A stretch of 61,824 nt of DNA, the filler included, from Desulfonatronovibrionaceae bacterium (GTDB lineage Bacteria; Desulfobacterota; Desulfovibrionia; Desulfovibrionales; Desulfonatronovibrionaceae): the NCBI GenBank assembly GCA_046539845.1. It is 4 parts of 4 records of this genome, joined end to end, with 100 filler letters (N's around TTAATTAATTAA, not from the genome) between each part and the next. Parts side by side here need not be neighbours in the genome. Positions count along the whole stretch, not along the records: positions 1 to 15,822 come from JBKHGE010000045.1; 3 more parts are not named here. One strand, given 5' to 3'. The position numbers and the translations under genes are program-made. The notes under the pieces are model-generated. The model worked only from the letters and a program-made list of their open reading frames with translations. It was not told where the DNA came from and made no database searches. Shown piece after piece: positions 1-47,367 of the stretch (the first letter of the stretch is position 1; every line of letters starts with the position of its first letter).

Positions 1-79
1 GGATTGGCTTCGACAAATATAAATTATTTAAGTTGCGTTGTAGGGTTAAGCGCCCAATGACCTTTCCCCGGGCCGGGTA

Positions 80-1120
<1,041 letters not shown>

Positions 1121-1239
1121 CTACATTCCCCGCTAGAATAATTAGGTTTCCACTTGCAGCTCTTACCCCGCACCGCCACTTGAGAGTATACTTTTCTTTG
1201 GTTATATTCAACAATTCATTTCGGTTCGGAACACTAAAT

Positions 1240-2178
1240 ATGCACAACCGCTACTACCCCCTGTCCGCATACTTCAGGTCCAGATTCGGACGCCGGGTGC
1301 AGAAGATACCCCTGGACGGAGCAGCCACTTGCCCCAATCGGGACGGGACCATCTCCACCCTGGGGTGTGCCTTCTGTAATCCCAAAGGTTCAGGGACCGG
1401 GCTGGGCAGTAGAAAAATGTCCTTAACAGAGCAGTACCTGCATTGGCAAACCAGACTGGGCCGCAAATACAAGGCCGGTCTGTTCATGATCTATCTGCAG
1501 TCCTACACCAACACCTACGGCCCCATATCCCGGCTAAAAGATACCCTGCGCGAGCTGGCCGCCCTGCCGGACGCGGCTGGCTTGTGCATCGGGACCCGAC
1601 CCGACTGTCTGGACAAAGACAAGGTCGCGCTTCTGTCCGAACAGCCCTGGGAGGAGATCTGGCTGGACATGGGCCTGCAGTCTTGCAACGACAGCACCCT
1701 CCAGGCGGTAAACCGGGGGCACACCGCCCGGGACTTCTCCCGGGCCTGCGGGCTGGCCGCCTCCCGCGACCTCAAGGTCTGTGCCCATGTAATCGCCGGG
1801 CTCCCGGGCGAGAATCGCGGCCATTTCCTGCAAACGATCGAATTTTTGAATCACCTTGGAATCCAGGGCATCAAAATCCATAACCTGTATATCTGCCGGG
1901 AGACAAAGATGGCCGAGGACTATCGCGCAGGCCGCTATCACCCGCTGACCCGCTGGGAATACGCACAATGGGTGGTCCACGGTCTGGAGCGCCTTGATCC
2001 GGGCATTGTCGTGCACAGGCTGAACGGGGACCCGGTTCCCGGGGAACTCATCGCCCCGCAATGGGCCGAAAACAAGGCCGGGGTCCTGGAGACCATCCGC
2101 TACTGTCTTCGGGAAAAAGACACTTGGCAGGGCCGGACATATTGCCCTCAGATCCCGGACTGGTTTCAAACCCCCTGA
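1240..2178 (+). CDS. TIGR01212/YhcC-family radical SAM protein
   Basis: CPNRDG...GCAFC (Cx11Cx2C), QSYTNTY, GTRPDC, NRGH, GIKIHNL; start moved to ATG 1240. Confidence 0.9.
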   Translation: MHNRYYPLSAYFRSRFGRRVQKIPLDGAATCPNRDGTISTLGCAFCNPKGSGTGLGSRKMSLTEQYLHWQTRLGRKYKAGLFMIYLQSYTNTYGPISRLKDTLRELAALPDAAGLCIGTRPDCLDKDKVALLSEQPWEEIWLDMGLQSCNDSTLQAVNRGHTARDFSRACGLAASRDLKVCAHVIAGLPGENRGHFLQTIEFLNHLGIQGIKIHNLYICRETKMAEDYRAGRYHPLTRWEYAQWVVHGLERLDPGIVVHRLNGDPVPGELIAPQWAENKAGVLETIRYCLREKDTWQGRTYCPQIPDWFQTP

Positions 2179-2192
2179 ACAAAAGGCAGGAC

Positions 2193-2720
2193 ATGGACAA
2201 AACAGAGATGGTTTCCGCCCCCGGGTTTTGTCTGGAGCTTAAATGGTCCGGACCGACCCTGGCCAAGACCAAGCTGTTTCCGCGCAGGGAATGGGCAGCT
2301 GCCCCGGATCCGCGCACCTGCCTAGACCCGGAGCTGGTCCGGGCGCTTATCAACTACGGCCCGGACACCTGGCCGCATATCAGCCGCATCCAACTTTCTC
2401 TCACCGGGCTGAGCGCCTTCCGGACCCGGGTACTGCTCACTTTGCGCAGCAAAGTCCCTTTCGGGACCACCATCACCTACGGGGAACTAGCCCGTCTGAG
2501 CGGCCATCCCGGAGCGGCCCGGGCGGTGGGCCGGTGCATGGCTTCAAACCCCTGGCCGGTTGTTGTCCCCTGCCACCGCGTATTGGGCGAAAACTCCCTG
2601 GGAGGCTTCGGATCCGGGTTAAAATTGAAGAAAACCCTCCTGCGCCTGGAGGGAATACACCCGCAGCAGCCAGGGACTAATATCAACACCCGGACCCGGC
2701 CCGGAGCAAAAAAATGCTGA
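2193..2720 (+). CDS. ogt: Methylated-DNA--protein-cysteine S-methyltransferase
   Basis: Active-site PCHRV, ARAVG, YGELA; start moved to ATG 2193. Confidence 0.9.
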   Translation: MDKTEMVSAPGFCLELKWSGPTLAKTKLFPRREWAAAPDPRTCLDPELVRALINYGPDTWPHISRIQLSLTGLSAFRTRVLLTLRSKVPFGTTITYGELARLSGHPGAARAVGRCMASNPWPVVVPCHRVLGENSLGGFGSGLKLKKTLLRLEGIHPQQPGTNINTRTRPGAKKC

Positions 2721-2834
2721 CCCCGCGGGGGCTTAAAAAACACAAGAAGCGGCGCAACAATCCCCCACCGAAACGCGGCTGTCCGCTGACAAAGACCCCT
2801 GCACCCTTGCCGCCGAAAGACTCCCAACAGCCAG

Positions 2835-5498
2835 CTAAGGGGTCGGATCTTTTCCCTTTCCCTCTTCATCCCCGGGGCGGAGGACCATAAAATAGGAAGA
2901 ATCCATCTGCAGATACTTGCGCGCCGCCCTGCGGACATCTTCAGGCTTGACCTCTCCCACCCGGTCTATCATCTCCCGGTTGAAATCCAAATTCAGTCCC
3001 ATGGTCAAGAGGGAGGCCGCCTCGCTGCTGCGCGAGGACAGGCTCTGGTGGCTGCGGTAATATTCGCCGGTGATCATGTTCACCGCCCTTTTGACCTGCT
3101 TCTCCTGCGGGGCCTTGCTGCGGAGGTCTTCTATCACCTGCCTGAATCCCTGAACTGCCTGCTCTTCCTTCTCCGGATAGGTACCGATGTAAAAGGCCAG
3201 AAAGCCATATTCCGGGGTCTGCCACAAAAGCGGGGTCACGGTGTAGCCCAGTCCTTTCCGGTCCCGCAGCTCCCGGAAAAGGACCCCCCCCTGTCCGGCC
3301 AGAACCGTCTTCAGGACCTTGAGCACCGGGGTGGAGTCATCGTTGAGTCCCGGGACCGGGAAGGCCAGAAGCACATGCGCTTGATGCCTGTCCTCCAGGC
3401 TCAGCTCAGTCTCCCGGAGCGGAGACCAGACATTCTTTGGGGGCTTTTCCCCGGATTTTACTTCCCGTTTGCGCAGGTCGCGGACCAGCGGTTCCAGAGC
3501 ATCCCGGTCAATCTGGCCGCAGAGGGTTATCACGCAGGGCCGGGAGAATTGCTTGTCCCAAAAGGACCGGAGCTCATCCGGATCCATCTCCTCCAGCCCG
3601 GAGGGATCTCCGAGATGGAACTCCGCGAACGGTCCTTCAGAGAAAAGAAACGGGAACAGACGACGGAACATGTACCCGGCGGGACGGTCGTCCCTGGATC
3701 GGATCTCGGCTATCTGCTCTTTGACCGCCTTACTCACCTCCTCCGGAGAAAATTCCGGGGAGAACAGGACCTCCCGGACCAGACCGTATATATCCCGGCT
3801 GTACCGGACCGGGAACTTGGCCTGCACGGAAAAGCTCTGCCGGCCGGACCCGGAATCCAGCTCGGCCGCTCTGTCGGACAAAAAGTCCTGGATCTCCGTG
3901 GCGGTCCGGTTCCCGGTCCCGCGGACCAGGCTGCGGGCGGTCAACTCGGCCAGGCCACTCTCCCCCCCTTCCAGCAGCTCATCTCCGCCCGGCCAGGATA
4001 TATTCAGCGCGGTATACGGAAGGCTGGGGTCCTCGATCAAAACCAGGCTCTGCCCCTGACCCAGCTCCAGGACTTCCCGGCCGGTTTTTTCCGCTCTCTT
4101 TTCTACGCCGGTTTTTTGTTCTTCTTTAGCTTCCCAGTTCCCGGCAAGGACCTCCTGAAAGGCGTCCCTGTCCACCGGCACCGAATCCGGCAGAAGCAGG
4201 CTCATATTGAGCCGGTCCGGGTGTAGATAACTGTCCATGACCTGCTGCAGGCTGTCTTGATCCACCTGCCCCAAATCGTAGATATATTTATCCTCAGCCC
4301 GGACCGAATGCTCGAAAAACTGGAAATATCCCAGCTTGGACGCGGTCCCTCCCAGGGTCTCCTTGCTGCTGAAAAGCTCGTCCTCGATGTTCGCCCGGGC
4401 GCGCTCGATCATCTCCGGGGTAAAGCTGTCCGCGCTCAGCCCGGCCAGATCCGAGGTTAGCTCATCCCAGAACACGTCCATGCTGTCCGGGGGCAAAACG
4501 GCCCGGATATACAGCATCCCGCCCCGTTCCATGCTCACAGCAGAGCAGGAGATGCTGTCCACGAGTTGTTTTTCGTATTTGTATTTGCGGTGCAGATAGG
4601 AGGTCATATCCCCGCCCAGGAGATAGGAAAGGACCTCTAGGTCCGAGGTCTCGGGCGCGCTCAGGGCGGGGATGGGAAAGGCTATGCCGGCATAGGCCTT
4701 CTTCCAGGGCCCGGTGGTGATGTCCATGCGCGGCCTGGTTTGGGTTTGGGCCGAATCCAGCGGCTGGGCGGGAAGCACCGGATGATCGTTTTCCAAGTCG
4801 CCGAAATACACTTTGGCCCGATCCACCACTTCTTCGGTGCTCACCTGGCCGCAGACCACCAGGAGCATGGATTGGGGCTGATACAGCCGGGCCACGTAGT
4901 CCTTTAGATCCTGACTGGTTATATCCTTGACTGTCTGCGGATAGCCGATCACCGGCCGGGAATAGGGCGTGCCCCCCCATACACTTTTCTGAATGGACTT
5001 AAAAAGCCGCTGCCCGGGATTGTCCTCACCCCTTTCCAGCTCGGCAATAACCACGTCTTTTTCGCTCTTGAGCTCCCGGGGATCGAAAACGGAGCCGAAG
5101 GCCATATCCCGCAAGACATCCAGCCCCAACTGCCACTTGTCCGCGGGCAGGTCCACCTTGTACATAGTGTAGTCCAAGCTGGTGGCCGCGTTTATATCCC
5201 CGCCTGCGCTTTCCACCTCCTCGGCTGTCTCACCCGGTCCCCTTTTTTCCGAACCTTTGAAGACCATATGCTCCAGCAGGTGGCTTATTCCCGCCTGATC
5301 CGGGGATTCGTACGCGGATCCGGCATGCACATACAAACGCATGGAGGTCAGCGGAAACCGCTCATCCTCCTCTACCAGTATCTGCAGTCCGTTCTCCAGG
5401 ATCACCAAGTCAGTGGCCTCGAGTTGCCCAGGGGCACTCAAAGCGGCGGTTATAAACATACAAAATATCCCCAGGGTTATGCTAAGGCGGCAAAACAT
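2835..5498 (-). CDS. M16 (pitrilysin-like) zinc metallopeptidase, exported
   Basis: HLLEH (HxxEH), NAATS, duplicated M16 halves, LRDRKGLGY, N-terminal signal-like segment; 887 aa. Confidence 0.92.
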   Translation of the reverse strand: MFCRLSITLGIFCMFITAALSAPGQLEATDLVILENGLQILVEEDERFPLTSMRLYVHAGSAYESPDQAGISHLLEHMVFKGSEKRGPGETAEEVESAGGDINAATSLDYTMYKVDLPADKWQLGLDVLRDMAFGSVFDPRELKSEKDVVIAELERGEDNPGQRLFKSIQKSVWGGTPYSRPVIGYPQTVKDITSQDLKDYVARLYQPQSMLLVVCGQVSTEEVVDRAKVYFGDLENDHPVLPAQPLDSAQTQTRPRMDITTGPWKKAYAGIAFPIPALSAPETSDLEVLSYLLGGDMTSYLHRKYKYEKQLVDSISCSAVSMERGGMLYIRAVLPPDSMDVFWDELTSDLAGLSADSFTPEMIERARANIEDELFSSKETLGGTASKLGYFQFFEHSVRAEDKYIYDLGQVDQDSLQQVMDSYLHPDRLNMSLLLPDSVPVDRDAFQEVLAGNWEAKEEQKTGVEKRAEKTGREVLELGQGQSLVLIEDPSLPYTALNISWPGGDELLEGGESGLAELTARSLVRGTGNRTATEIQDFLSDRAAELDSGSGRQSFSVQAKFPVRYSRDIYGLVREVLFSPEFSPEEVSKAVKEQIAEIRSRDDRPAGYMFRRLFPFLFSEGPFAEFHLGDPSGLEEMDPDELRSFWDKQFSRPCVITLCGQIDRDALEPLVRDLRKREVKSGEKPPKNVWSPLRETELSLEDRHQAHVLLAFPVPGLNDDSTPVLKVLKTVLAGQGGVLFRELRDRKGLGYTVTPLLWQTPEYGFLAFYIGTYPEKEEQAVQGFRQVIEDLRSKAPQEKQVKRAVNMITGEYYRSHQSLSSRSSEAASLLTMGLNLDFNREMIDRVGEVKPEDVRRAARKYLQMDSSYFMVLRPGDEEGKGKDPTP

Positions 5499-5882
5499 TC
5501 AGTCCTCCGTTTCCAGGCCGGATTCTTCACTGATTTCAAACGCCGGGGACAAGAGTTCCCGGTCCACCTCGTCCGCATCCTCGGCGTGCAGGCGGACGAG
5601 ATTGCGCAGATGGGCAAAACTCTTCCCGTCCATGCGTACAAAGGATAATCCAGTCCCTGTGGCCTCTCTGCGGCGCACGCTAACCTCAAAGCGCATTTTG
5701 AGCCCGGAATCAAGAATAATCTCCAAAAGGCACTTCTCTCCCGGTTCGACTCCAGGGGCCCGGTCCAGAAAAACCCCGCGCAGACTTATGTTCACGGTCC
5801 GGGCGCTGTGGCTGTGTCCGGGACAAAACAGGCGGGCGAAGGCGTCCATATCCACTCGGGTCCTTTTCCTCTGTTCCGGCAT
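5499..5882 (-). CDS. Single-domain PilZ protein (c-di-GMP receptor)
   Basis: RKRTR (RxxxR) and NISLRG ([D/N]xSxxG); its TGA directly abuts the peptidase ATG. Confidence 0.85.
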   Translation of the reverse strand: MPEQRKRTRVDMDAFARLFCPGHSHSARTVNISLRGVFLDRAPGVEPGEKCLLEIILDSGLKMRFEVSVRRREATGTGLSFVRMDGKSFAHLRNLVRLHAEDADEVDRELLSPAFEISEESGLETED

Positions 5883-6105
5883 TTCCGGTCTCCTTTCCTC
5901 TTTGGACTTGTAACTTGGGCCGCAAAAATTCTCAACTCATATATTTATCCGGACCGAAAACCCGGGTTTGCCCCTGCAGCTAATTTTGGCCGCAACTGAA
6001 CCAATATCTACCGCCCGGTTGACTTGCATTTTTTTTTCCCCCATATCTAAAGGCACGGTTCAAGCACTACCAGTTCCCGACAATCCTTAAAAAGGAGCGC
6101 GGACC

Positions 6106-7161
6106 ATGAGCGCACATGAATTAATACCCACAGCAGACGCCATCCCTGTGGCCTGGGGATGGCTCTATTTTTTGCTACTTTTGACCTTTGTTTTACACCT
6201 GCTTTTTATGAACGTCATGCTCGGCTCGGCCATAATGGCCCTGGTAAGGGACGCAGGCGGAAAGGACCCGGAGGTAAGCAAGGACATCTCCACCAAGCTC
6301 CCGTACACCATAGCCTTTACCATTAATCTGGGCGTGGCCCCCTTTCTATTTCTGCAGGTCTTGTACGGGCAGTTCATTTACACCAGCTCGGTGCTTATGG
6401 CCGGGTACTGGCTTACAGTCATCGGCCTGCTTATTCTTTTATACTACAGCGCATATATATATGACTTCCGCTTCGATAAAATGCCCGGGACCAGGGCGCT
6501 TTTGATCGGGATAACCGCGGTGTTGGGCCTGATCGTGGCCTTTTTGTTCACCAACAACATGACGCTTATGCTCCGGCCTGAGGCATGGAACGAATATTTT
6601 GCCAACCGCTCCGGGACGATACTCAATCTCGGGGACCCCACGCTCTGGCCCCGCTACCTGCATTTTGTCACCGCCTCCATAGCCCTGGCCGGGCTGTTCC
6701 AGGCGGTCATGGCCAAGGTACGCCGCAAACTCCCGGACCGAGAAAAAAGAATGGACCAGGGAATGAAATGGTTCTCCTACGCCACCGCGGTCCAGATAGT
6801 CATCGGTCTGTGGTTCTTGATAAGCCTCCCCCAAGAGATCATGCTCGCCTTCATGGGCGCCTCCGCACTAAACACAGCCGTGTTCCTGGCCGCGGTGACA
6901 TCCGCCATTCTGGCCCTGGTCTTGGGCTTCACCCGCCGGGTCTGGCCGGCAGCCGCGACCGTTGTGCTCACGATAGCGCTCATGGCTGTTACCCGCGACC
7001 TGGTGCGCATTGAATTCTTAAGCCCCTATTTTCATCCCTCTGATCTGGAATTGACCCCCCAATACTCTCCAATGATCGTTTTCTTTGTCGTTTTGGTTTT
7101 GGGGCTGGGACTCGTGGCCTATACGCTATCTCTGGCCGCCAAAAGCGCAAAGGAGGACTAA
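6106..7161 (+). CDS. Polytopic membrane protein, probable second CydA-like subunit of a cytochrome bd-superfamily complex
   Basis: About 9 hydrophobic segments; His in FVLHLLF and RYLHF; RBS AAGGAG; coupled to next gene (GGAGGACTAAATG). Confidence 0.65.
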   Translation: MSAHELIPTADAIPVAWGWLYFLLLLTFVLHLLFMNVMLGSAIMALVRDAGGKDPEVSKDISTKLPYTIAFTINLGVAPFLFLQVLYGQFIYTSSVLMAGYWLTVIGLLILLYYSAYIYDFRFDKMPGTRALLIGITAVLGLIVAFLFTNNMTLMLRPEAWNEYFANRSGTILNLGDPTLWPRYLHFVTASIALAGLFQAVMAKVRRKLPDREKRMDQGMKWFSYATAVQIVIGLWFLISLPQEIMLAFMGASALNTAVFLAAVTSAILALVLGFTRRVWPAAATVVLTIALMAVTRDLVRIEFLSPYFHPSDLELTPQYSPMIVFFVVLVLGLGLVAYTLSLAAKSAKED

Positions 7162-9828
7162 ATGAACTATCCGATATGGGAACTGACCACTCTGGGCGGG
7201 GGTTTCTGGATCGCGCTGGTGGCTGTGGTCCATGTGTACGTGGCCCATTTCGCGGTTGGCGGTGGCCTTTTTCTTATCCTCTGCGAGAAAAAGGCCTACC
7301 GGGAGAACTCCGGGGCCATCCTGGACTACACGCGCAGGCACACCAAATTCTTCCTCCTTTTGACCATGGTCTTCGGCGGGCTCACCGGAGTGGGCATATG
7401 GTTCACCATCTCCCTTTTGTCCCCCGCGGCCACATCGGTTCTGATCCATAATTTCGTCTTTGCCTGGGCCACGGAATGGGTGTTTTTCATGGGGGAAATC
7501 GTGGCCCTTTTCGTTTACTTCTATACCTTCGGCAAGATGCAGAGGCATCAGCACCTGACCGTGGGCTGGATATACTTCATCTGCGCCTGGCTGTCTTTGT
7601 TTATAATCACGGGGATAATCGACTTTATGCTCACTCCCGGGGCGTGGCTGGAAAACCGCAACTTCTGGAGCGGGTTCTTCAACCCCACTTTCTGGCCCTC
7701 CCTGTTCTTCCGCACCTTTATCTGCTTTGTATTCGCCTCCATATTCGCCCTGGTCACCGCCTCCTTTCTAAAGGAGGACAAAACCAGGCAGACCATGATG
7801 CGCTACGCGGTCAAATGGATGCCTCTGCCCTTTATTCTCATGCTTGCCTCCGGTTTCTGGTATCTGCAGGCCGTGCCCCCGGAGACCAGAGAGATAGTCC
7901 TTAAAGTATCCCCGGAAATGCGGACCTATATAGACTGGTTTCTGTACCTCTCTCCGGTTCTGTTCGCCACGGTTTTGGCCATGAGCATCCGCCTGCCCAA
8001 AGGACTGCAGCGCACGGCCACCCTGATCCTTCTGGTTTTGGGGCTTATGTACATGGGCTCGTTTGAGTTTATTCGTGAGGGTGCCCGCCGGCCGTATCTA
8101 GTCTACGACTATATGTACTCCAACTCCATACCAGTATCTCAGGCCCGGGAAATAAACAGGCAGGGTGTCCTTAAAACCGCCAAGTGGACCGAAGAGAAAA
8201 AGATAACTCCGGAGAATCGGATTGATGCCGGGGAGGAAATATTTCAATTGCAATGCTCTAGCTGCCACTCCATAGGCGGCCCTATGAACGACATCCTGCC
8301 CTTAACAAAAAAATTCGAAACTGTTTACGGTATGGACTCCATGCTCAACGGCATGGGCAAGATAAACAACTACATGCCCCCGTTTATGGGCACGAAAAAG
8401 GAGCGCAGGGCCCTGGCCGCGTATATCGTGCGCGGACTTAACGGCTATAAAAAACAAATTGCCGCATACGAACCTCAAAAATTCACCTTTGACATCCCGG
8501 CAGACGATGGAGGCAGCGAATATGTGCTCTTGGCCTGGAACAACCTGGGCATGCACTGCATCTCGGACAGTGATCCGTACTGGATTCTGCTCCCTCCGGC
8601 CAATGATCTGTTCGCCCAGCTCATCCGCAAGGACGACTTCCCGGAGATCGTGACCGAGGGGGTTAAGCTTAACTACAAAGTGGAAAAAGGATTTGAGAAC
8701 CCGGCCGGAGAGGTCCGGTTCTGGGAGTTCTCCAAATCGCTCATAGGCAAGGAGCTGCCCCTGAATGTCGGGGTCTCCGGGAATCCGGTCACGGACGGGG
8801 AGATGGAGCTAAACGAGGACCTCATGGCCTTCGAGGCCTCACTGGTCCCGGTCGTCCCCTATCCGGAAGACGGATCGTTCAACCCCTATCCCCTGTACAC
8901 GGTGGAGGCGGTGGACAAAAAAACCGGGGAAGTCCTGGCTAAAACCCGGTTCGTGGCCCCAACCTCCACGGAAATGGGCTGCAAGAACTGCCACGGCGGG
9001 AACTGGCGCGTGGCCGGAGTGGCCGGGTTTTCGGACCAGACCTCGGCGGACATTTTAGAGGTCCATGACCGCATAAACCAGACCGGTCTTTTGCCAAAGG
9101 CAGAGGCTGGGAACCCCATGCTCTGCCAGAGCTGCCACGCCGATCCGATCCTGGGCACAGAGGGCGAGCCGGGGGTCCCCAATTTCCCGGCGGCCATACA
9201 CGGATTTCACGCCAATTATCTAACGGAGAGGGGAACCGAGGCCTGCTTTAAATGTCATCCCTCCTCGACCGCAGGACCCACCGGGTGCCTGCGCGGGGTG
9301 CACGCCGGGCTGGGACTAGACTGCGTCTCCTGCCACGGCACCCTGGAGGATCATGCCCTTAGCCTGCTCAAACACGAAAAAGAGCAGGGCAAGGACGTGG
9401 ACAAGCTCATGCGTCATCTTGAGCCCCGGACCGTGGACTCGGTGGAGGAGATCGAGCCCAGACTCCCTTGGATAAACGAACCGGACTGCCTGAACTGCCA
9501 CCAGGATTTCCAGCCGCCGGAATCCAAGGACGTGAGTGCCTTCAACCAATGGACCAATGACGCCTCCGGGCTCTTCCGCATGCGCACTGACCAGATGGGC
9601 CTTATGTGCGAATCCTGCCACGGCTCCACCCACGCCAATTACCCGGCAGACAATATGTACGGCCAGGACCGGGACAATATCCCGCCCCTGCAGTACCAGG
9701 ACAATAACCTGCCTATAGGAGCGGACAAGAACTGCCGAGTCTGCCACAGCATGGACATGGACTTCAGCGCTCACCACCCGAACATGCTGCAGGAATTCCG
9801 CAACCGGCAGCTTATACGCAAAAGATAA
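7162..9828 (+). CDS. Cytochrome bd subunit I (CydA)-like membrane domain fused to an octaheme cytochrome c region
   Basis: CydA-like VHVYVAHFAVGGG, WATEWVFFMGE, FNPTF, REGARRPY; eight CxxCH motifs (CSSCH, CKNCH, CQSCH, CFKCH, CVSCH, CLNCH, CESCH, CRVCH). Confidence 0.85.
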   Translation: MNYPIWELTTLGGGFWIALVAVVHVYVAHFAVGGGLFLILCEKKAYRENSGAILDYTRRHTKFFLLLTMVFGGLTGVGIWFTISLLSPAATSVLIHNFVFAWATEWVFFMGEIVALFVYFYTFGKMQRHQHLTVGWIYFICAWLSLFIITGIIDFMLTPGAWLENRNFWSGFFNPTFWPSLFFRTFICFVFASIFALVTASFLKEDKTRQTMMRYAVKWMPLPFILMLASGFWYLQAVPPETREIVLKVSPEMRTYIDWFLYLSPVLFATVLAMSIRLPKGLQRTATLILLVLGLMYMGSFEFIREGARRPYLVYDYMYSNSIPVSQAREINRQGVLKTAKWTEEKKITPENRIDAGEEIFQLQCSSCHSIGGPMNDILPLTKKFETVYGMDSMLNGMGKINNYMPPFMGTKKERRALAAYIVRGLNGYKKQIAAYEPQKFTFDIPADDGGSEYVLLAWNNLGMHCISDSDPYWILLPPANDLFAQLIRKDDFPEIVTEGVKLNYKVEKGFENPAGEVRFWEFSKSLIGKELPLNVGVSGNPVTDGEMELNEDLMAFEASLVPVVPYPEDGSFNPYPLYTVEAVDKKTGEVLAKTRFVAPTSTEMGCKNCHGGNWRVAGVAGFSDQTSADILEVHDRINQTGLLPKAEAGNPMLCQSCHADPILGTEGEPGVPNFPAAIHGFHANYLTERGTEACFKCHPSSTAGPTGCLRGVHAGLGLDCVSCHGTLEDHALSLLKHEKEQGKDVDKLMRHLEPRTVDSVEEIEPRLPWINEPDCLNCHQDFQPPESKDVSAFNQWTNDASGLFRMRTDQMGLMCESCHGSTHANYPADNMYGQDRDNIPPLQYQDNNLPIGADKNCRVCHSMDMDFSAHHPNMLQEFRNRQLIRKR

Positions 9829-9846
9829 GCCCACTTTACGCCTCAC

Positions 9847-9890
9847 GCAAATCCCCGGAATTACTAAATACTCCGGGGATTTGCCCTTTA
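9847..9890 (+). terminator. Stem-loop after the cytochrome operon, probable terminator
   Basis: Perfect 13-bp stem GCAAATCCCCGGA/TCCGGGGATTTGC, 12-nt loop, weak T tail. Confidence 0.55.
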
Positions 9891-10067
9891 AGGCTGTACC
9901 CTTGGTTGAATCTGAAACAAAAATCCTTTCTCAAAGGTTTGACAAATCGGGAAAAAAACACAAGCCTTAATCCGGATATCAAACGATCAACAGCCCCGTA
10001 CCCCGGGGGTATTGTACCGGAAAACAAAAATGGCCTGCGGGCCTTAGGCCGTGCGCGCTGATCCACA

Positions 10068-11119
10068 TGTAAGGTCTTGAATTTTCTGTTTCTTTGCTTC
10101 CAGGGAAAGACTTGCAGCCGGCTGGGATAAAATATCAGACAATACAGAAAACAGGAGTAAAGACGTGGCCCTGATCCTGCGCAGCAAAACCAGAACCACC
10201 CCGGCCATCCGGCAGTACATCCAGGAATCGGACAAATCCGTGGGTGAACTGGCCGGGGAGCTGAACTTAAGCGAATCCACCATCCGTAAATGGCGTAAAC
10301 GCGCCGAAGGATACGACGCCAGCCGACGCAAGCGCGTGCACCGGACCATGTTCACCCCGATGCAGGAGCTGATAATCATTGAAATCCGGCGTCTGCTTCT
10401 TTTATCCTTGGACGATATGCTCACCGTGGTCCGCACATTTATTCATCCCTCCTGCTCCCGTTCTTCCCTGGACCGCCTGCTCCGGCGCTATGGGGTGTGC
10501 AGGCTCGGCGATCTGATCCCGGACCCGGAAGACTACAACCGAGTCATTAAGCAGTACAAACACTACCTGCCCGGATTCATGCGCATCCACGAGCGCACCT
10601 TGCCCCTGGTCCAGGAATCGGACTGCCGCAGGCACCTGTTTCTGGCCGTGGACCGGGCCACTTCCTGGCTGTACATGGAAACCAGAAAAGACGAATCCCC
10701 GGCCTCTGCAGCCGCTTTCTTAAAGAATTTGGAAGAAAAGACCCCATTCAGACTACGCCGCATCCTGACCTGCGACCGGAAGCTGTTCGGTGGGCGTGAT
10801 CCCCAGGAAAACGAGTTCTCCTCCGCCTGCCGGGAGTTGGGAGTCCAGCAGCACTTCTACCACAGCCGGGCCTCAAGCTCCCCCCAGCCTTTGCCCGACT
10901 TCCCCTCTAGCAGTATGAACGGAAGTCCGGAGACGTTCACCTCGGGCCGGGACATAGAAAAAAGGCTGCTTTCCCACTGCTACGTGTACAACAACCATAT
11001 CCCTTTGCGCAGCAAGGGCAGCCGCACCCCGCAGGAGGTCCTGCAGGCCTTTTACCAGTACTATCCGGAGCTGTTCTCCCAGAATCCGCAAGAAATGGTC
11101 GCCTATCCGGATCAGGACA
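10068..11119 (+). mobile_element. Putative eroded IS481-family element footprint (probably immobile)
   Basis: TGT start at 10068 (TGTAAGGTCTTGAATT) and GACA ending 11119 bracket about 1.05 kb containing the transposase-like domain; ends match each other poorly, no target duplication. Confidence 0.4.
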
Positions 11120-12498
11120 AATATCTGTTCTATCAGCCGCGCAAGGTGCAGCCCACCGTGGCCCGGGCCAAGGGGATATACATGTGGGACACCACCGGCA
11201 AGAGGTATCTGGACGGCTCCTCCGGAGCGGTGGTGAACAACATCGGCCACGGGAACAAGCAGATCATGGCCGCTATCGAGCGCCAGTCGCAGCGCACCTT
11301 TTTCGCCTACCGCACCCAGTTCGAAAACCAGCCCTCCAAGGACCTGGCCCGGGTGCTGGTGGAAAATACCGCCCCGCATCTAAACCGGGTGTTTTACGTC
11401 TCCGGCGGCTCGGAAGCGGTGGAGTCGGCCATGAAGGCCTGCCGGCAATATTTCTTTAATCTGGGCGAGGGCTCCAGGTATAAATTCATAAGCCGTGTCC
11501 CGTCCTATCACGGCTCCACCCTGGGCGCGCTCGCCCTGACCTCCTACTCTCCCCTGGAAGTGGCCTTTAAGCCCCTGGTGGCGGATTATCCCAAGATCCC
11601 GGCCCCGACCTGCTACCGCTGCGCCTATCACCAGGAGTATCCAAGCTGCGAGCTGGAATGCGCCTGGGCTTTGGAAAAAGTCATCCTGGAACAGGGTCCG
11701 GAGAACATCGCCGGTTTCGTGGCCGAGCCCGTGGGCGGGGCCAGTACCGGCGCCCTGGTTCCCCCGGATGAGTACTTCGGCATAATCCAGCATATCTGCC
11801 GCAAATACGGCATCCTTTTGATCCTGGACGAGGTCATGACCGGTTTCGGTCGCACCGGCCGCATGTTCGCCTATGAGCACTGGGGGGTGGAGGCGGATAT
11901 AATCGCCCTGTCCAAGGGCATCGCTTCCGGGTATTACCCCCTGGGCGCGATTGTGACCACCGAGGAGATAGTGGATGTGATCGTTAACCGGGGGGGGTTC
12001 GCACACGGCCATACCTATGCCGGCAACCCTATGGCTTGCACCGTGGGTCTGGAGGTTATCAACATCCTGCGCAAGGAGAAGCTGCCTCAAAACGCGGAGC
12101 AGGTAGGGCGGCAGCTTTTGCAGGGGCTAAGGGGCCTGCAGAAGAAATTCCCTATGATCGGAGATGTGCGCGGGCTGGGTTTGTTGACCGCCCTGGAGCT
12201 GGTCCGGGACCGCGGCACCCGAGAGCCCTTTCCCCCGGAATGGAACCTAGCCATGCTGCTCACCGAAACCGCCTTTGAAGAGGGGTTGATCATCTACCCC
12301 CGCCGCTCCATAAACGGGCTGTTCGGGGATCATGTCCTGGTCGCCCCGCCGCTTATTACCACCCCGGAGCAGATAAAAGAAATCCTGACTAAGCTGGAAC
12401 GGTCCCTGAAGCGCACCTCCGAACAATTGACCCGGATGGAGGGGGCCCTGGGCGAGCAAAAGGAAGCCTCCATCCCGGCCACTCCGTTTTACCGCTGA
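10165..12498 (+). CDS. Fusion of a catalytically degenerate IS481-family transposase (aa 1-~318) and a class III PLP aminotransferase (YodT-like)
   Basis: GTG start with AGGAG RBS; N-half RTTP, TIRKWRKR, LSLDD, SRSSLDRLLRRYGV, LFLAVDRAT, YN..IP..TP..PELF; C-half YLDGSSGAV, SGGSEA, YHG, DEVMTGFGRTG, ALSKG (PLP Lys), GHTY. Confidence 0.9.
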   Translation: MALILRSKTRTTPAIRQYIQESDKSVGELAGELNLSESTIRKWRKRAEGYDASRRKRVHRTMFTPMQELIIIEIRRLLLLSLDDMLTVVRTFIHPSCSRSSLDRLLRRYGVCRLGDLIPDPEDYNRVIKQYKHYLPGFMRIHERTLPLVQESDCRRHLFLAVDRATSWLYMETRKDESPASAAAFLKNLEEKTPFRLRRILTCDRKLFGGRDPQENEFSSACRELGVQQHFYHSRASSSPQPLPDFPSSSMNGSPETFTSGRDIEKRLLSHCYVYNNHIPLRSKGSRTPQEVLQAFYQYYPELFSQNPQEMVAYPDQDKYLFYQPRKVQPTVARAKGIYMWDTTGKRYLDGSSGAVVNNIGHGNKQIMAAIERQSQRTFFAYRTQFENQPSKDLARVLVENTAPHLNRVFYVSGGSEAVESAMKACRQYFFNLGEGSRYKFISRVPSYHGSTLGALALTSYSPLEVAFKPLVADYPKIPAPTCYRCAYHQEYPSCELECAWALEKVILEQGPENIAGFVAEPVGGASTGALVPPDEYFGIIQHICRKYGILLILDEVMTGFGRTGRMFAYEHWGVEADIIALSKGIASGYYPLGAIVTTEEIVDVIVNRGGFAHGHTYAGNPMACTVGLEVINILRKEKLPQNAEQVGRQLLQGLRGLQKKFPMIGDVRGLGLLTALELVRDRGTREPFPPEWNLAMLLTETAFEEGLIIYPRRSINGLFGDHVLVAPPLITTPEQIKEILTKLERSLKRTSEQLTRMEGALGEQKEASIPATPFYR

Positions 12499-12551
12499 GA
12501 AAAGGAATGTTTGGCTTCTTAAGACTGGACCCAGGAGACTTATCCATACAA

Positions 12552-12586
12552 CCCGGTCAAAAAACAAGAAAGTTTGAACCGCCAAG
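12552..12586 (+). repeat. Intergenic repeat copy 1
   Basis: CCCGGTCAAAAAACAAGAAAGTTTGAACCGCCAAG, near-identical to 15491-15526. Confidence 0.75.
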
Positions 12587-12643
12587 ACCCCAAAGACACG
12601 CAGTTTAAGACAGCAAAAAATTCTGCAAATAACAGGAAAATCC

Positions 12644-13339
12644 ATGACCGACAAAACAACCGCGCCCGAAAAGGCCCTGGCCCGAATAAAGGATAACTCC
12701 TCGGTCATGATCGGGGGCTTCGGCGCCCCGGGCACCCCATTCACCTTGATCCGGGAGCTTCTGAAGCAGAACCCCGCCCGACTGAGATTGATCAAAAACG
12801 ACGCCAACGAAGAAGGCATGGGTATCTCCCTCCTCTTCGAGGCCGGATGCGCGGACAAATTCGTGGTCTCGCACATGGGTTTGAACAACCGGGTCATTAA
12901 GATGATGAACCAGGGCAAAATTTATGTGCAGATGTTCCCCCAGGGGATAATGGCCGAGAAGATCCGGGCCGGAGGAGCCGGGATCCCGGCTTTTCTGACC
13001 GACATAGGCCTGGATACAGTCTTGAGAAAAGAGCGGCAGACAGTGACCCACCAGGGAAGAGAATACATACTCGAGCCTGCGCTGCGTGCGGACTTCGCCC
13101 TGATTCACGCCGAAGAAGCGGACGCCTTCGGCAACTTGCGCTTCACCAAGACCGCCCGCAACTTCAGCCCGCTCATGGCCATGGCCGCGGACACGGTTAT
13201 TGTCGAGGCCTTTGACATCCATCCCGCCGGGGCCCTGGATCCGGATTGCATCCATCTCCCGGGCGCATTCGTGGACCATGTGGTCTGTGTTGATCGCCGG
13301 GGAGCAGACTATCAGGTATTGAGTCATCATGCACTATAA
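12644..13339 (+). CDS. Family I CoA-transferase subunit A (YodS/AtoD-like)
   Basis: MIGGFG, PQG.MAEKIRAGGAGIPAF, ADAFGNL, ARNF.P.MAMAA. Confidence 0.93.
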   Translation: MTDKTTAPEKALARIKDNSSVMIGGFGAPGTPFTLIRELLKQNPARLRLIKNDANEEGMGISLLFEAGCADKFVVSHMGLNNRVIKMMNQGKIYVQMFPQGIMAEKIRAGGAGIPAFLTDIGLDTVLRKERQTVTHQGREYILEPALRADFALIHAEEADAFGNLRFTKTARNFSPLMAMAADTVIVEAFDIHPAGALDPDCIHLPGAFVDHVVCVDRRGADYQVLSHHAL

Positions 13340-13979
13340 GGAAAAAATCGCCGCCAGAGCGGCCAAGGAGCTGAAAAACGGGCAAATCGTCAATTTGGGC
13401 ATCGGTCTGCCCACCTTGATTTTGGAACACCTCCCGGCTGGGGTGGAGGTCTTTGTCCACTCGGAAAACGGGATCCTGGGCATGGGCAAACGCTGCCGGG
13501 AAGAAGAAGCCGACCCCATGCTCATAGACTCCGGCGGGAGCTATATATTCAGCCGAACCGGGGCCTCGTTTTTCGATTCCGCGCTTTCCTTTTCCCTGGT
13601 CAGGGGCGGGCGGCTGGACGTAGCCGTCCTGGGCACCCTGGAGGTGGCCGAAAACGGGGACCTGGCCAACTGGATCATCCCTGGCAAATTCGCTCCGGGC
13701 ATCGGTGGGGGGATGGAGCTGGCCCAGAAGGCGCGCAGGCTGATCGTGACCACCGCGCACACCACGCGCAAAGGCGATCCGAAGATACTCCCGGAGTGCA
13801 CCCTGCCCGTGACCGCCAAAGGATGTGTGGACCTTATCATCACCGAGCTGGCTGTATTCGCGGTAGAGGACAAAAGGCTTTTTCTGCGCGAACTGGCCCG
13901 GGAGGCAGACCTGGATGATGTCCTGGAAAAGACCGGAGCGGAGGTGGTCGTACCCCAAGGAGATATTCCGGTATTTTGA
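13329..13979 (+). CDS. Family I CoA-transferase subunit B (YodR/AtoA-like)
   Basis: VNLGIGLPT, catalytic HSENG, GDLANW, GIGGGMEL; overlaps end of subunit A. Confidence 0.93.
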   Translation: MHYKEKIAARAAKELKNGQIVNLGIGLPTLILEHLPAGVEVFVHSENGILGMGKRCREEEADPMLIDSGGSYIFSRTGASFFDSALSFSLVRGGRLDVAVLGTLEVAENGDLANWIIPGKFAPGIGGGMELAQKARRLIVTTAHTTRKGDPKILPECTLPVTAKGCVDLIITELAVFAVEDKRLFLRELAREADLDDVLEKTGAEVVVPQGDIPVF

Positions 13980-14176
13980 ACCATGGCAGTCCAGTTCATC
14001 GGGAGATCAGTCTTAAAATAATCTGCCTGCTGGCCATACATTTTCAGCAGGCCGGACTCAAGACGCTATAGGCACGCCAAGGGGGAATACTTACGATTTG
14101 CCCAAAACTCTGCTCGCTAAAGACACACAAAATCAATGCCCGAATACGACACAGAAACCACCTACTCGGGGGAAAT

Positions 14177-15442
14177 ATGGATAGTCGGGAGCAAAAAATA
14201 ACAGCCGCGGTGGATGAACTTGCACCGCAGATAATCGATTTCACCGCCCGCTTGGCTGCGGAGCCGAGCACGCTGGGAAACGAACTCGGGGCCCTGGGGC
14301 TCATGGAGTCCGAGCTGGATAAATTGTCTCTGCCGGTACGCCGTATCCACATTGATTATAGTACACTTTCCGGACATCCCGGCTACGCCCCGGCGCCCTG
14401 GGCCGAGCCCGGCAGATACTGCCTGGTGAGCGAACTCCCCGGGACCTCCGACAAAGGGCGTAGCCTGATCTTTAACGGACATTTGGATGTTGTGGCCGCG
14501 GACCCCAAACAATGGGACACCGCCCCTTTTATCCCCCAAAGGCGGCAAAACCGCATGTTCGGCCGGGGGACCGGAGACATGAAGGCCGGGGTAGCGGCCA
14601 TGCTCTATGCCGCTTATGCCGTACGCCGGGCCGGATTCCACCTGAGGGGCCCCCTGACCCTGGAAGCGGTCATCGAGGAGGAATGCTCCGGAAACGGGGC
14701 CCTGGCCTGCCGGGCAGCCGGAATTGACGCGGATGCGGTTTTGATCCCGGAACCGTTTGGGCCCAGATTGTATACCGCCCAAGTCGGGGTATGCTGGTTC
14801 AAAGTAAGCGTAAGCGGCCGGCCAGTGCATGTCCAGGAGGCCGGGGCCGGGGCCAACGCCCTGGAAAAATGCTTCCCCCTAATCCAGGCTTTGCGGAAGA
14901 TGGAAAAAGAGATGAATGCCGCTCCCCTGCCCGGGCCGTACTCGGATCTCAAACATCCCCTGAATCTGAATATCGGCATGCTCTTTGGGGGGGACTGGCC
15001 GTCCACCGTAGCAGCCGAGGCCGAATTCCACGGCCGCATGTCCTATCCACCGCAAATGACCTTTGCCCGGATGAAAGATAGGCTACAAGACACAATCAAA
15101 ACGGCCGCGGACCAAGACCCCTGGCTGAAAGCGAACCCGCCCCGGGTGGAGTTCTACGGTTTCCGCTCCGACGGGCACATCCAGAGCCGGGACGTGGAAC
15201 AGCTACAAATACTGGATGAATGCCACCAAGAGTTCTTCCCCGCGCCGGCCGAAGAATACGCCTCCACCTGCACCACCGATCTGCGCGCCTTTTATTCCTT
15301 TGGCCGGGCCCGGGGGTGCTGCTACGGGCCGGTGGCGGAAAACATCCACGGGGTAAACGAATGCGTGAAACTGGATTCTATACTCCACACCGCCAGGGTC
15401 TATGCCCTTTTCGCCGCCCGCTGGTGCGGACTTGAGGAATAA
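14177..15442 (+). CDS. ArgE/DapE-family M20 deacylase (YodQ-like)
   Basis: FNGHLDVV, GRGTGDMKAG, IEEECSGNG, PEP, NIHGVNE. Confidence 0.9.
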   Translation: MDSREQKITAAVDELAPQIIDFTARLAAEPSTLGNELGALGLMESELDKLSLPVRRIHIDYSTLSGHPGYAPAPWAEPGRYCLVSELPGTSDKGRSLIFNGHLDVVAADPKQWDTAPFIPQRRQNRMFGRGTGDMKAGVAAMLYAAYAVRRAGFHLRGPLTLEAVIEEECSGNGALACRAAGIDADAVLIPEPFGPRLYTAQVGVCWFKVSVSGRPVHVQEAGAGANALEKCFPLIQALRKMEKEMNAAPLPGPYSDLKHPLNLNIGMLFGGDWPSTVAAEAEFHGRMSYPPQMTFARMKDRLQDTIKTAADQDPWLKANPPRVEFYGFRSDGHIQSRDVEQLQILDECHQEFFPAPAEEYASTCTTDLRAFYSFGRARGCCYGPVAENIHGVNECVKLDSILHTARVYALFAARWCGLEE

Positions 15443-15490
15443 AAAAACTCCAAAAAATTGGGCCAAAAACTTAATAACTTACTCATGAAG

Positions 15491-15695
15491 CCCGGTCATA
15501 AAAAGCAAAAAGTTTGAACCGCCAAGTCACGAAGTACGCGAAGCTTAAGTCGCGAGGAAGAGATATCGTCCAAAACCGGGTAACGGTTTTGGACCAGGTT
15601 GCCTTTTCATTTGCCGCTACCCGGCAAATGAAAAAAACTTCCTGTCTTCCTTGGCGTCCTTGGCGTCTTGAGAGAGTCTTCGAACGGGCGGTTAA
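15491..15695. repeat. Palindromic REP/MITE-like intergenic element
   Basis: Left arm AACCGCCAAGTCACGAAGTACGCGAAG; right arm CTTGGCGTCCTTGGCGTCTTG...GGCGGTT; central perfect 13-bp hairpin TTTTCATTTGCCG/CGGCAAATGAAAA (15604-15634). Confidence 0.65.
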
Positions 15696-15780
15696 TAATT
15701 TTTCTTGAATCGCGGACAGAGTTTTCTCCGGATCATTATAAAACTTAAAAAGCACTCAGAGATAAAACGGGAGGGAAACA

Positions 15781-15822
15781 ATGCGAGAGGTTGTAATAGC
15801 CGGATATCTGCGTACCCCACAG
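15781..15822 (+). CDS. 5' fragment of a thiolase, cut by contig end
   Basis: GGAGG RBS then MREVVIAGYLRTPQ, a typical thiolase N-terminus; only 14 codons visible. Confidence 0.7.
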
Positions 15823-15922
15823 NNNNNNNNNNNNNNNNNNNNNNNNNNNNNNNNNNNNNNNNNNNNTTAATTAATTAANNNNNNNNNNNNNNNNNNNNNN
15901 NNNNNNNNNNNNNNNNNNNNNN
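15823..15922. other. Artificial contig spacer
   Basis: 44 N + TTAATTAATTAA (six-frame stop) + 44 N. Confidence 0.99.
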
Positions 15923-31624: not shown

Positions 31625-31724
31625 NNNNNNNNNNNNNNNNNNNNNNNNNNNNNNNNNNNNNNNNNNNNTTAATTAATTAANNNNNNNNNNNNNNNNNNNN
31701 NNNNNNNNNNNNNNNNNNNNNNNN
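31625..31724. other. Artificial contig spacer
   Basis: 44 N + TTAATTAATTAA + 44 N. Confidence 0.99.
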
Positions 31725-47267: not shown

Positions 47268-47367
47268 NNNNNNNNNNNNNNNNNNNNNNNNNNNNNNNNN
47301 NNNNNNNNNNNTTAATTAATTAANNNNNNNNNNNNNNNNNNNNNNNNNNNNNNNNNNNNNNNNNNNN
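47268..47367. other. Artificial contig spacer
   Basis: 44 N + TTAATTAATTAA + 44 N. Confidence 0.99.

Follow-up and report, generated by a model that had tools for sequence, protein, structure and literature searches.

A catalytically dead IS481-type transposase joined in frame to a class III aminotransferase in Desulfovibrionales: a candidate DNA-binding head on a catabolic enzyme

The window analysed here, a stretch of 61,824 nucleotides from a Desulfonatronovibrionaceae bacterium (assembly GCA_046539845.1), contains a gene in which a degenerate transposase of the IS481 type is joined in frame to a class III aminotransferase. Judged by its ancestry, its lost mobility, its fixed locus in several taxa and the purifying selection acting on it, the N-terminal half (N-half) of the product is a domesticated transposase module. 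The window consists of contigs joined across runs of N (15823-15922, 31625-31724, 47268-47367); only positions 1-15822 are contiguous with the fusion gene, and they represent contig C45 of the 65-contig, 2.34-Mb host genome (G000). The original prediction, made from the sequence alone, had described a single open reading frame (ORF) of 777 codons with AGGAG ahead of a GTG start codon. This ORF was found again at 10165..12498 on the plus strand; the spacing between AGGAG and GTG is 7 nt, and the product has a size of ~88 kDa and consists of two modules (Table 1). The N-half motifs that had been listed could all be placed: TRTTP (residues 9-13), TIRKWRKR (39-46), LSLDD (80-84), SRSSLDRLLRRYGV (98-111), LFLAVDRAT (158-166), YNNHIP (275-280) and PELF (301-304).

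Residues 1 to ~310 correspond to an IS481-type transposase composed of two helix-turn-helix (HTH) modules and an RNase-H-like core. The first 320 residues alone matched the NCBIfam IS481 transposase model NF033577 with an E-value of 2.1e-30 and 106.2 bits (profile positions 7-219 of 284), which is below the curated cut-off of 224 bits. The Pfam integrase core rve gave only an E-value of 0.2, and Pfam HTH_Tnp_1, HTH_23 and HTH_28 matched above or near their cut-offs. A library-wide phmmer search returned 2315 relatives of the N-half at E <= 0.001, the best of which are 36-38% identical over residues 2-318; the closest ones (P0007/P0009/P0010-type) still have the motifs HxDxK, LTDNG and PQTNGMVERFN and are ordinary transposases of the IS481 type. 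Homology to transposases ends at about residue 308. An AlphaFold2 (AF2) model of the N-half reached a mean predicted local distance difference test (pLDDT) value of 81.8 and a predicted template modelling (pTM) score of 0.73, and only residues 236-252 were disordered (pLDDT <50). In this model, the helices of the first HTH comprise residues 13-21, 26-33 and 37-45, those of the second one residues 65-78, 82-92 and 99-108. The strands (E) and helices (H) of the core are arranged as E138-145, E157-163, E169-174, H179-192, E199-203, H217-224 and E228-232, which is the beta-beta-beta-alpha-beta-alpha-beta order of an RNase-H-like fold. Top PDB matches found by Foldseek were the IS21 transposase IstA (8b4h, E 8.8e-9) and retroviral integrases, with E-values ranging from 1e-6 to 1e-9; a sequence profile of the N-half alignment also finds integrase cores and IstA (E ~1e-7), and a search of the ESM Atlas gave ordinary IS481/rve clusters only (0.97). 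The NF033577 match, the alignment to intact relatives and the Foldseek matches to IstA and integrases agree in identifying the N-half as a degenerate IS481-type transposase, as had been proposed.

The catalytic triad of two aspartates and a glutamate (DDE) is gone. For this check, an alignment of 54 rows was used, comprising 7 fused N-halves and 47 representatives, which were picked from 150 listed relatives with near-full-length matches favoured. The combination of D, D and E in the catalytic columns is absent from all 7 fused rows, in contrast to 24 of the 47 other rows, which contain all three. In the window protein, the columns are occupied by H142 (10588-10590), C203 (10771-10773) and P244; across the fused rows the residues are H/Y, C/A/S and P/D/S/F. 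Pairwise alignment with the intact relative P0007 likewise paired aspartates with H142 and C203 and showed that the motif of the glutamate is replaced. The claim that all three catalytic positions are altered (GFMRIH with H142, LTCDR with C203) was thus substantiated. It had been qualified by the remark that E143 and D204 sit one residue from the expected positions: these residues are indeed acidic in the window protein, but neither they nor D245 are conserved among the fused copies (A143 and A204 in G188, M143 in G008, G245 in G004 and G012). No inverted repeats (IRs) flanking the N-half were found, and the host genome contains a single copy of the transposase N-half. At the ends of the closest genomic insertion sequence (IS), L009, no IR with a score >=10 was detected; consequently, no IR consensus was available as a probe.

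The fusion is not confined to this assembly. Among 4778 candidates, six proteins of 427-1360 aa matched the N-half: five full-length clusters (776-779 aa), which are 51-85% identical over the N-half at 98-100% coverage, and one fragment of 642 aa. The five clusters comprise 14, 10, 3, 6 and 4 sequences. Sources of the fused proteins include two members of Paucidesulfovibrio, one of them Paucidesulfovibrio gracilis DSM 16080, as well as metagenome-assembled genomes of Desulfovibrio, Desulfohalobiaceae and Desulfovibrionales; in the database the proteins are annotated as 'aminotransferase class III-fold...' or '.../transposase-like protein'. Of 401 genomes taken from the order Desulfovibrionales, 15 had a match to the N-half at E <= 1e-5. 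Eight genomes, G000 included, carry the fused form and are spread over four families; the remaining 7 matches are transposases or relics with 29-37% identity, for example L009, which combines an intact DDE triad with one TAG stop. The synteny that had been looked for exists as well, as the fusion gene is directly followed by genes for CoA-transferase subunits A and B in 7/7 loci. Two irregular copies were inspected separately. The fused gene of G012 (L023, G012:C83, ~5069-5072) has a frameshift near residue 397, which is due to an assembly error or marks a pseudogene. An apparent N-terminal deletion in G112 (L024) was dismissed, because it corresponds to a gap of 100 N.

Selection on the two halves was compared by means of dN/dS values (Nei-Gojobori). 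For the window and L018, dN/dS was 0.070 in the N-half and 0.059 in the C-terminal half (C-half); for L019 and L020 the corresponding values were 0.18 and 0.105. Residues 136-230 of the RNase-H-like core gave 0.12-0.23 in the closest pairs, residues 233-257 gave 0.34-1.3 in diverged pairs. These values are rough, since the proportion of synonymous differences (pS) is 0.46-0.72 in all pairs and synonymous sites are near saturation. Across families, N-half sequences are 50-59% identical, ~80 N-half residues are invariant in 6 fused proteins, and the HTH recognition helices as well as the segment LSLDD...SRSSLDRLLRR are nearly invariant. Within the first HTH, residues T39, R41, K42, W43 and R46 are the same in the 6 full-length fused proteins; the second HTH is the best-conserved stretch of the N-half, with an invariant run from R99 to R108. 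Such identity in a frame that is open at this divergence excludes neutral drift, and the values of 0.07-0.18 for the closest pairs indicate purifying selection and agree with the earlier suggestion that the N-half frame is kept open by selection. The N-half might instead be a functionless remnant, which is kept for its promoter, ribosome-binding site (RBS) and start codon and of which an open frame alone is required. The sole good RBS and start of the fusion gene do lie at the N-module, and segment 233-257 does evolve nearly neutrally. Yet a remnant predicts dN/dS of about 1 throughout, and the low N-half values, the identity retained across families despite near-saturated synonymous sites, the invariant residues and the confidently predicted fold make this explanation very improbable.

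The C-half is, by sequence, a bona fide class III aminotransferase, and the enzyme is probably active. Pfam PF00202 (Aminotran_3) covers residues 330-747 with an E-value of 1.5e-98 and 330.5 bits (cut-off 30.5; profile positions 11-402 of 403). The catalytic set of this family consists of SGGSEA, DEV...G.GRTG and the lysine binding pyridoxal phosphate (PLP). All PLP motifs that had been named are present and invariant among the fused proteins, namely SGGSEA (413-418), YHG (448-450), DEVMTGFGRTG (555-565) and ALSKG (581-585). The closest solved chain is 3i4j (E 4.6e-87). In the alignment to this chain, the PLP lysine K584 (11914-11916) coincides with the GKG lysine; K584, D555 and S413-A418 are invariant in 6 fused proteins. 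The best NCBIfam models are equivalogs of the 'aspartate aminotransferase family', which score below their cut-offs (PRK06917, 471 vs 535 bits).

The full-length AF2 model has a pTM of 0.58; residues 313-321 show pLDDT <50, and the modules are not confidently placed. The low values in the linker and the drop in pTM point to two modules on a flexible tether. In 6/6 fused genes compared, GGAG precedes the start of the N-module by 6-8 nt. Unfused orthologues of the C-half start 8-12 residues ahead of the conserved (L/I)(L/Y)(F/Y)YQ, so that codon 311 (ATG, 11095-11097) is probably a fossil aminotransferase start. Three of the 6 fused genes have ATG at this codon, one has TTG and two have CTG or CTC; no Shine-Dalgarno motif was found ahead of it. 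As it is not a start codon in 2/6 genes and lacks this motif, it cannot as a rule give rise to a separate aminotransferase, in line with the original prediction, which had seen no convincing internal RBS. Going by these start signals, translation of the fusion protein begins with the N-module. The junction itself is crossed by contigs of three sequencing runs: Logan contigs of 15393 nt from runs X1 and X2, from which the assembly may stem, span the whole fusion gene, and a 479-nt Logan contig from run X3 (another sample of the same study) covers 10886-11364 with zero differences. The fusion thus recurs in other genomes, its junction is spanned, dN/dS of its N-half is well below 1 and no internal start is evident; any of the opposite outcomes had been named beforehand as speaking against the prediction.

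Unfused orthologues of the C-half, which are 57-65% identical and have ORFs of 450-479 aa, occur in other genera of the order, where they stand at the head of the corresponding gene cluster or within it; in 12 loci the CoA-transferase A/B genes come next. A maximum-likelihood tree was built from 27 C-halves, with L049 and the fragments G012 and G012b left out; in this tree, the 7 fused C-halves form one clade with an ultrafast bootstrap (UFBoot) value of 87 and an SH-aLRT value of 93, which is moderate but not strong support. A single fusion event is therefore the simplest reading. The fused clade is found in four host families and sister genera have unfused forms, a pattern that points to later horizontal spread or old paralogy. 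On the basis of the unfused orthologues and of this tree, the fusion is a derived state; it took place in an ancestor from which several lineages of the Desulfovibrionales descend. In the nearest intact relatives of the N-half, the ORFs (414-445 aa) do not stop at the conserved ...G.D(T/S) end but carry on into tails that are unrelated. In L011, the minus strand of G209:C17 (2-2158) encodes an intact IS481 transposase (HIDIT, LTDNG, PWTNGQVERMN), which continues in frame for ~390 residues into adhesin/autotransporter-like sequence. Judged by their sequences, such cases illustrate a route by which the fusion could have arisen. The same read-through into foreign sequence would be in keeping with a recent or active IS481 insertion, or an assembly chimera, reading in frame into the aminotransferase gene. 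This explanation is refuted for practical purposes by the loss of the DDE triad in 7/7 copies, the single genomic copy with no inverted repeats found, the orthologous fusions with synteny in 8 genomes of 4 families, the nearest transposases being just 36-38% identical, and the contigs of three runs that cross the junction.

The genes downstream of the fusion indicate a candidate pathway. Next to the CoA-transferase pair, an ArgE/DapE M20 deacylase gene follows in 4/4 loci reaching that far; then come genes for a thiolase and a gamma-aminobutyrate (GABA)-type transaminase, again in 4/4 loci of sufficient length, and, where the locus extends further (L019, L020, L021), by an aldehyde:ferredoxin oxidoreductase gene. 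In the host genome, contig C45 stops at 15822, and the continuation of the operon with the thiolase and the GABA-type transaminase is located on contig C41 (L068). The second aminotransferase of the fused loci is of the GABA transaminase type (600 bits). Unfused clusters contain, in co-directional order, genes for an ATP-binding cassette (ABC) transporter, a proline-racemase-family protein, Amidohydro_3, further transaminases, the oxidoreductase, the aminotransferase and the rest. A GNAT gene is found in three of the unfused clusters, and the copy that was scanned (G001) passes the NCBIfam model 'putative beta-lysine N-acetyltransferase AblB' (257 vs 205 bits). On contig C25 of the host genome (L069), ablA (769 bits, cut-off 525) adjoins an AblB-like gene. 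In the beta-lysine route of Pseudomonas, an acetyl-beta-lysine transaminase reportedly acts first; a C4 acetamido-acyl-CoA is then formed by cleavage and GABA by deacetylation, and a GABA transaminase and an oxidation lead to succinate. Compared with this pathway, the gene content of the operon likely fits an anaerobic catabolism of N-epsilon-acetyl-beta-lysine or beta-lysine, in which the C-half of the fusion would be the first transaminase. Having ablA-ablB, the host should itself be able to make the osmolyte N-epsilon-acetyl-beta-lysine.

This gene content also bears on the possibility that the fusion is a pure MocR-like regulator, whose aminotransferase half serves as a ligand sensor only and leaves catalysis to another enzyme. 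The use of the aminotransferase fold as a sensor is summarised for MocR, GabR and EnuR (PMC8739950), a second class III aminotransferase is encoded in the fused loci, and one genome has a further paralogue: besides the fusion, G004 carries an unfused aminotransferase with 59% identity (G004:C12:31558-38151), ~4.4 kb from an AblB-like GNAT gene. We nevertheless regard a mere sensor as improbable, because the PLP and catalytic motifs are all invariant and C-half dN/dS is only 0.06-0.1, because G000 has no other copy of the orthologue at E <= 1e-120, because the second aminotransferase is of a different type, and because the orthologue in unfused clusters is plainly a pathway enzyme.

The evolutionary course is supported by the results above: a transposase gene of the IS481 family was fused whole to the 5' end of the class III aminotransferase gene; the transposase part lost the DDE triad, the inverted repeats and mobility, whereas two HTH modules and a folded core were kept under purifying selection. 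For the contribution of this module, we propose the following mechanism. Class III aminotransferases dimerise. By dimerisation, the aminotransferase would present two transposase-derived DNA-binding heads with the control region ahead of the fusion gene as their target; in loci of the Paucidesulfovibrio type, this region would be the ~490 bp common with the divergent ABC-transporter operon. Substrate occupancy of the PLP site might then tune transcription, which would make the protein a 'trigger enzyme' comparable in its action to GabR/EnuR or PutA, yet built from a domesticated transposase.

Several observations are consistent with this proposal. The fusion gene heads the operon in all loci. 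In 4 fused loci of two genera, the block encoding ABC transporter, proline racemase (ProRac) and amidohydrolase is divergent from the fusion gene across an intergenic region of ~490 bp, whereas in unfused loci the same block is co-directional and lies upstream. In the unfused clusters of G378 and G303, the first gene encodes a PAS-sigma54 activator; the two activators share 59% identity, and the best matches to them in four fused genomes are partial, generic paralogues with 35-42% identity. Upstream of the window's fusion gene, a perfect hairpin likely terminates transcription of the preceding cytochrome gene, and L018 also has a hairpin at the corresponding place; the fusion gene therefore has its own promoter region. 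Taking together the conservation of the HTHs, the position at the head of the operon, the divergent layout and the missing sigma-54 activator, we judge the chances to be evenly balanced that the N-module binds DNA and regulates the operon. With respect to the original prediction, the degenerate, selected, conserved, single-copy fusion stands, and its regulatory part is retained as a proposal.

Besides the nearly saturated synonymous sites and the moderate clade support mentioned above, a number of observations weigh against our interpretation. The conserved TTGACA blocks were considered as operators and rejected, as they look like -35 boxes. The 38-nt block common to the window and L018, which contains TTGACA and the core AAAAAAACACAAGC with 14/14 identical positions, is probably the promoter. 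A seed-based operator search in six upstream regions reached at best 54/70, compared with 51-53 in 8 shuffles, and thus gave no shared motif above chance; repeat scans of the six regions yielded nothing consistent. A 13/14 match, TGAATTTTCTGTT(T/A), between window positions 10078-10091 and the intergenic region of L019, which belong to distant fused genes, did not reach significance in comparison with shuffles and is a lead only, a candidate site. A consensus scan of 9700-12800 for sigma-70 promoters and terminators gave counts at or below those of shuffles, with 1 promoter-like site vs 1.5 expected. Scanning fused and unfused control regions for sigma-54 promoters gave two weak reverse-strand matches only. 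The unfused clusters of G001 and G021 show no adjacent regulator either, so that the lack of a regulator gene does not set the fused loci apart. Upstream of the fusion, the window's genus has a cytochrome gene pair instead of the transporter operon, and Pro_racemase was not found in the host genome. The alignment behind the AF2 model of the N-half consists mostly of true transposases. Finally, the whole dead core is under selection, which an HTH-only regulator would not need; this hints at a further or different role.

With such a role, the N-module would be functional without being a transcription factor: it could mediate oligomerisation, act as a scaffold, serve as a nucleoid tether or control the aminotransferase allosterically. 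The constraint on the entire RNase-H-like core (dN/dS 0.12-0.23, residues 136-230), the operator motif not found in six upstream regions and the fact that transposase cores multimerise in assemblies of IstA and of integrases, the top structural matches, argue for this alternative. On the other hand, conservation within the N-half is highest in the two HTHs, the basic recognition helix being part of them, the full-length model shows no confident docking of the modules (pTM 0.58, linker pLDDT <50), and operon-head and divergent-promoter positions are typical of regulators. We therefore consider a non-transcriptional role rather unlikely, albeit the most serious of the alternatives. The regulatory proposal can be extended to a more specific scenario, which as a whole we also hold to be tentative and on the unlikely side: a complete IS481 transposase would have been captured at the start codon of a gene for an N6-acetyl-beta-lysine-type transaminase and, after loss of catalysis, turned into a substrate-responsive DNA-binding head; as a trigger enzyme, the fusion would control the catabolism of an osmolyte in halophilic sulfate reducers; the insertion would have seeded an inversion by which one ancestral cluster was divided into two divergent operons with one control region, replacing a sigma-54 activator, and the protein would be one case of a wider, undescribed class of DDE-less proteins derived from IS481.

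A comparison with known systems delimits the fusion. With the IS481 family (NF033577) the N-half shares the collinear order of HTH, second HTH, RNase-H-like core and C-terminal helices, which is alignable over residues 2-311, and the predicted fold class. It differs from the family by the missing D, D and E, the score of 106 vs 224 bits, the lack of inverted repeats, the single copy, the fixed syntenic position across genera and the covalent link to a metabolic enzyme. The architecture of an N-terminal module of DNA-binding type followed by a PLP domain of fold type I resembles that of MocR, GabR and EnuR and serves as a working analogy. EnuR is described as a MocR-type repressor of the catabolism of ectoine, a compatible solute (PMC8739950). 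In MocR proteins, however, the N-terminal part is a GntR winged HTH of ~70 residues, and in the fusion it is a transposase relic of 310 residues; moreover, the PLP part of the fusion belongs to a different aminotransferase class, class III; its catalytic set is intact and it has pathway orthologues. Scans with Pfam and NCBIfam gave no GntR-family or MocR match; the HTH matches were of transposase, homeodomain-like and weaker generic types. The fusion is accordingly not classified as a MocR/GabR protein, though by analogy it may work like one.

PutA, BirA and NadR are trigger enzymes with DNA-binding domains of their own, and like them the fusion would catalyse and control the same pathway with one polypeptide. 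Archaeal RbkR is introduced as a further trigger enzyme with its own DNA-binding domain (PMC5397151). All four use a ribbon-helix-helix or winged HTH of ordinary regulator families, and none of them is known to derive from a transposase, in contrast to the head of the fusion. Domestication of transposases is well documented in eukaryotes and rare in prokaryotes, TldRs being a recent addition. TldRs are reported as nuclease-dead TnpB derivatives acting as transcription factors (PMC13622181), and TnpA-REP (RAYT) has been called 'the first prokaryotic domesticated transposase' (PMC8266576). The fusion resembles both in that a transposon protein lost its mobility and was retained by the host, in the fusion presumably with a new role; TldRs and TnpA-REP derive, however, from HUH (IS200/IS605) transposases or RuvC-type TnpB and stand alone, whereas the fusion descends from a DDE transposase of the IS481 type and is joined to an enzyme. 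Eukaryotic fusions of host genes and transposases, such as SETMAR, are also related in concept. For CSB-PGBD3, long conservation and a function as a DNA-binding tether are outlined (PMC3459987). Common to CSB-PGBD3 and the bacterial fusion is a whole transposase joined in frame to a host protein and long conserved; CSB-PGBD3-type proteins originate in eukaryotes by splicing into an intronic transposon and have the transposase at the C-terminus, the bacterial fusion has it at the N-terminus. Among the abstracts searched, none describes a transposase-aminotransferase fusion or an IS481 domestication. A catalytically dead DDE transposase that selection has preserved in its entirety at the N-terminus of a metabolic enzyme is a clean and datable example of a multidomain protein made by an IS, and the fusion possibly also rewired the control of the operon. 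If the regulatory proposal is true, it would be the first transcription factor in bacteria that is derived from a DDE transposase and fused to an enzyme. Direct tests are feasible, because two cultured Paucidesulfovibrio strains carry the fusion, and the operon supplies candidate genes, including the transaminase, for anaerobic catabolism of N-epsilon-acetyl-beta-lysine or beta-lysine.

Table 1. Positions of the fusion gene, its modules and adjacent elements in the window
Feature	Position	Strand	Evidence or remark
Perfect hairpin, 13-nt arms, 100% complementary, 12 nt apart	9847..9884	+	Likely terminator after upstream cytochrome gene (stop 9828)
38-nt block common to window and same-genus L018, TTGACA at 9939-9944; candidate promoter	9938..9975	+	~190 nt upstream of start codon
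Shine-Dalgarno AGGAG (10154-10158) and GTG start codon of fusion ORF	10154..10167	+	
Fusion ORF, dead IS481-type transposase and class III aminotransferase	10165..12498	+	777 aa, uninterrupted
First HTH, residues 13-45, recognition helix STIRKWRKR	10201..10299	+	Pfam HTH_Tnp_1/HTH_23/HTH_28
Second HTH, residues 65-108, LSLDD...SRSSLDRLLRR	10357..10488	+	Pfam HTH_32, weak
RNase-H-like core, residues 136-232	10570..10860	+	Alignments, AF2 model, Foldseek
Variable Ser/Pro-rich segment, residues 233-257, replacing PQTNGxVERFN with the catalytic E	10861..10935	+	Alignment
C-terminal transposase-core helices, residues 261-304, YNNHIP...TP...PELF	10945..11076	+	Alignments, AF2 model
Junction, residues 305-321, predicted flexible linker	11077..11127	+	Full-length model, orthologue starts
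Class III (omega-type) aminotransferase domain, residues 322-755	11128..12429	+	Pfam PF00202, 3i4j
3-oxoacid CoA-transferase subunit A	12644..13339	+	Pfam CoA_trans; TIGR02429, 200 bits, above cut-off
3-oxoacid CoA-transferase subunit B	13329..13979	+	Directly after subunit A
ArgE/DapE-family M20 deacylase	14177..15442	+	NF005306, 422 bits, above cut-off

The 54-row alignment contains further sequences with lost catalytic residues. Nine of the 47 IS481-like representatives have none of the three (P0024, P0035, P0047, P0058, P0059, P0075, P0101, P0134, P0135), for which reason the phenomenon may be broad, and dead IS481 derivatives, as recognised by these columns, may form a wider class. P0134 and a further DDE-less relative, P0057, are annotated merely as 'helix-turn-helix domain-containing protein'. 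Outside this alignment, a 933-aa protein found in several Aeromonas species (P0076 cluster) combines a degenerate IS481-like N-module with ~600 residues of unknown function.

Two observations concern neighbouring genes. The two ABC permeases encoded next to the fusion gene are 88-92% identical between genomes of different families (G004 vs G214/G188; L019/L020 vs L021), and their neighbours, i.e. the racemase-family protein, the amidohydrolase and the fusion protein, are 61-69% identical only; this reflects either an oddly uneven conservation or partial gene transfer. Upstream of the fusion gene, positions 6106-9828 of the window (plus strand) encode a 351-aa membrane protein with no Pfam match, followed by an 888-aa protein, which consists of a membrane part resembling cytochrome bd subunit I and of cbb3-type, c7/c3 and MtrC-like multihaem cytochrome c domains. 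This pair is kept in the same genus with 77-86% identity.

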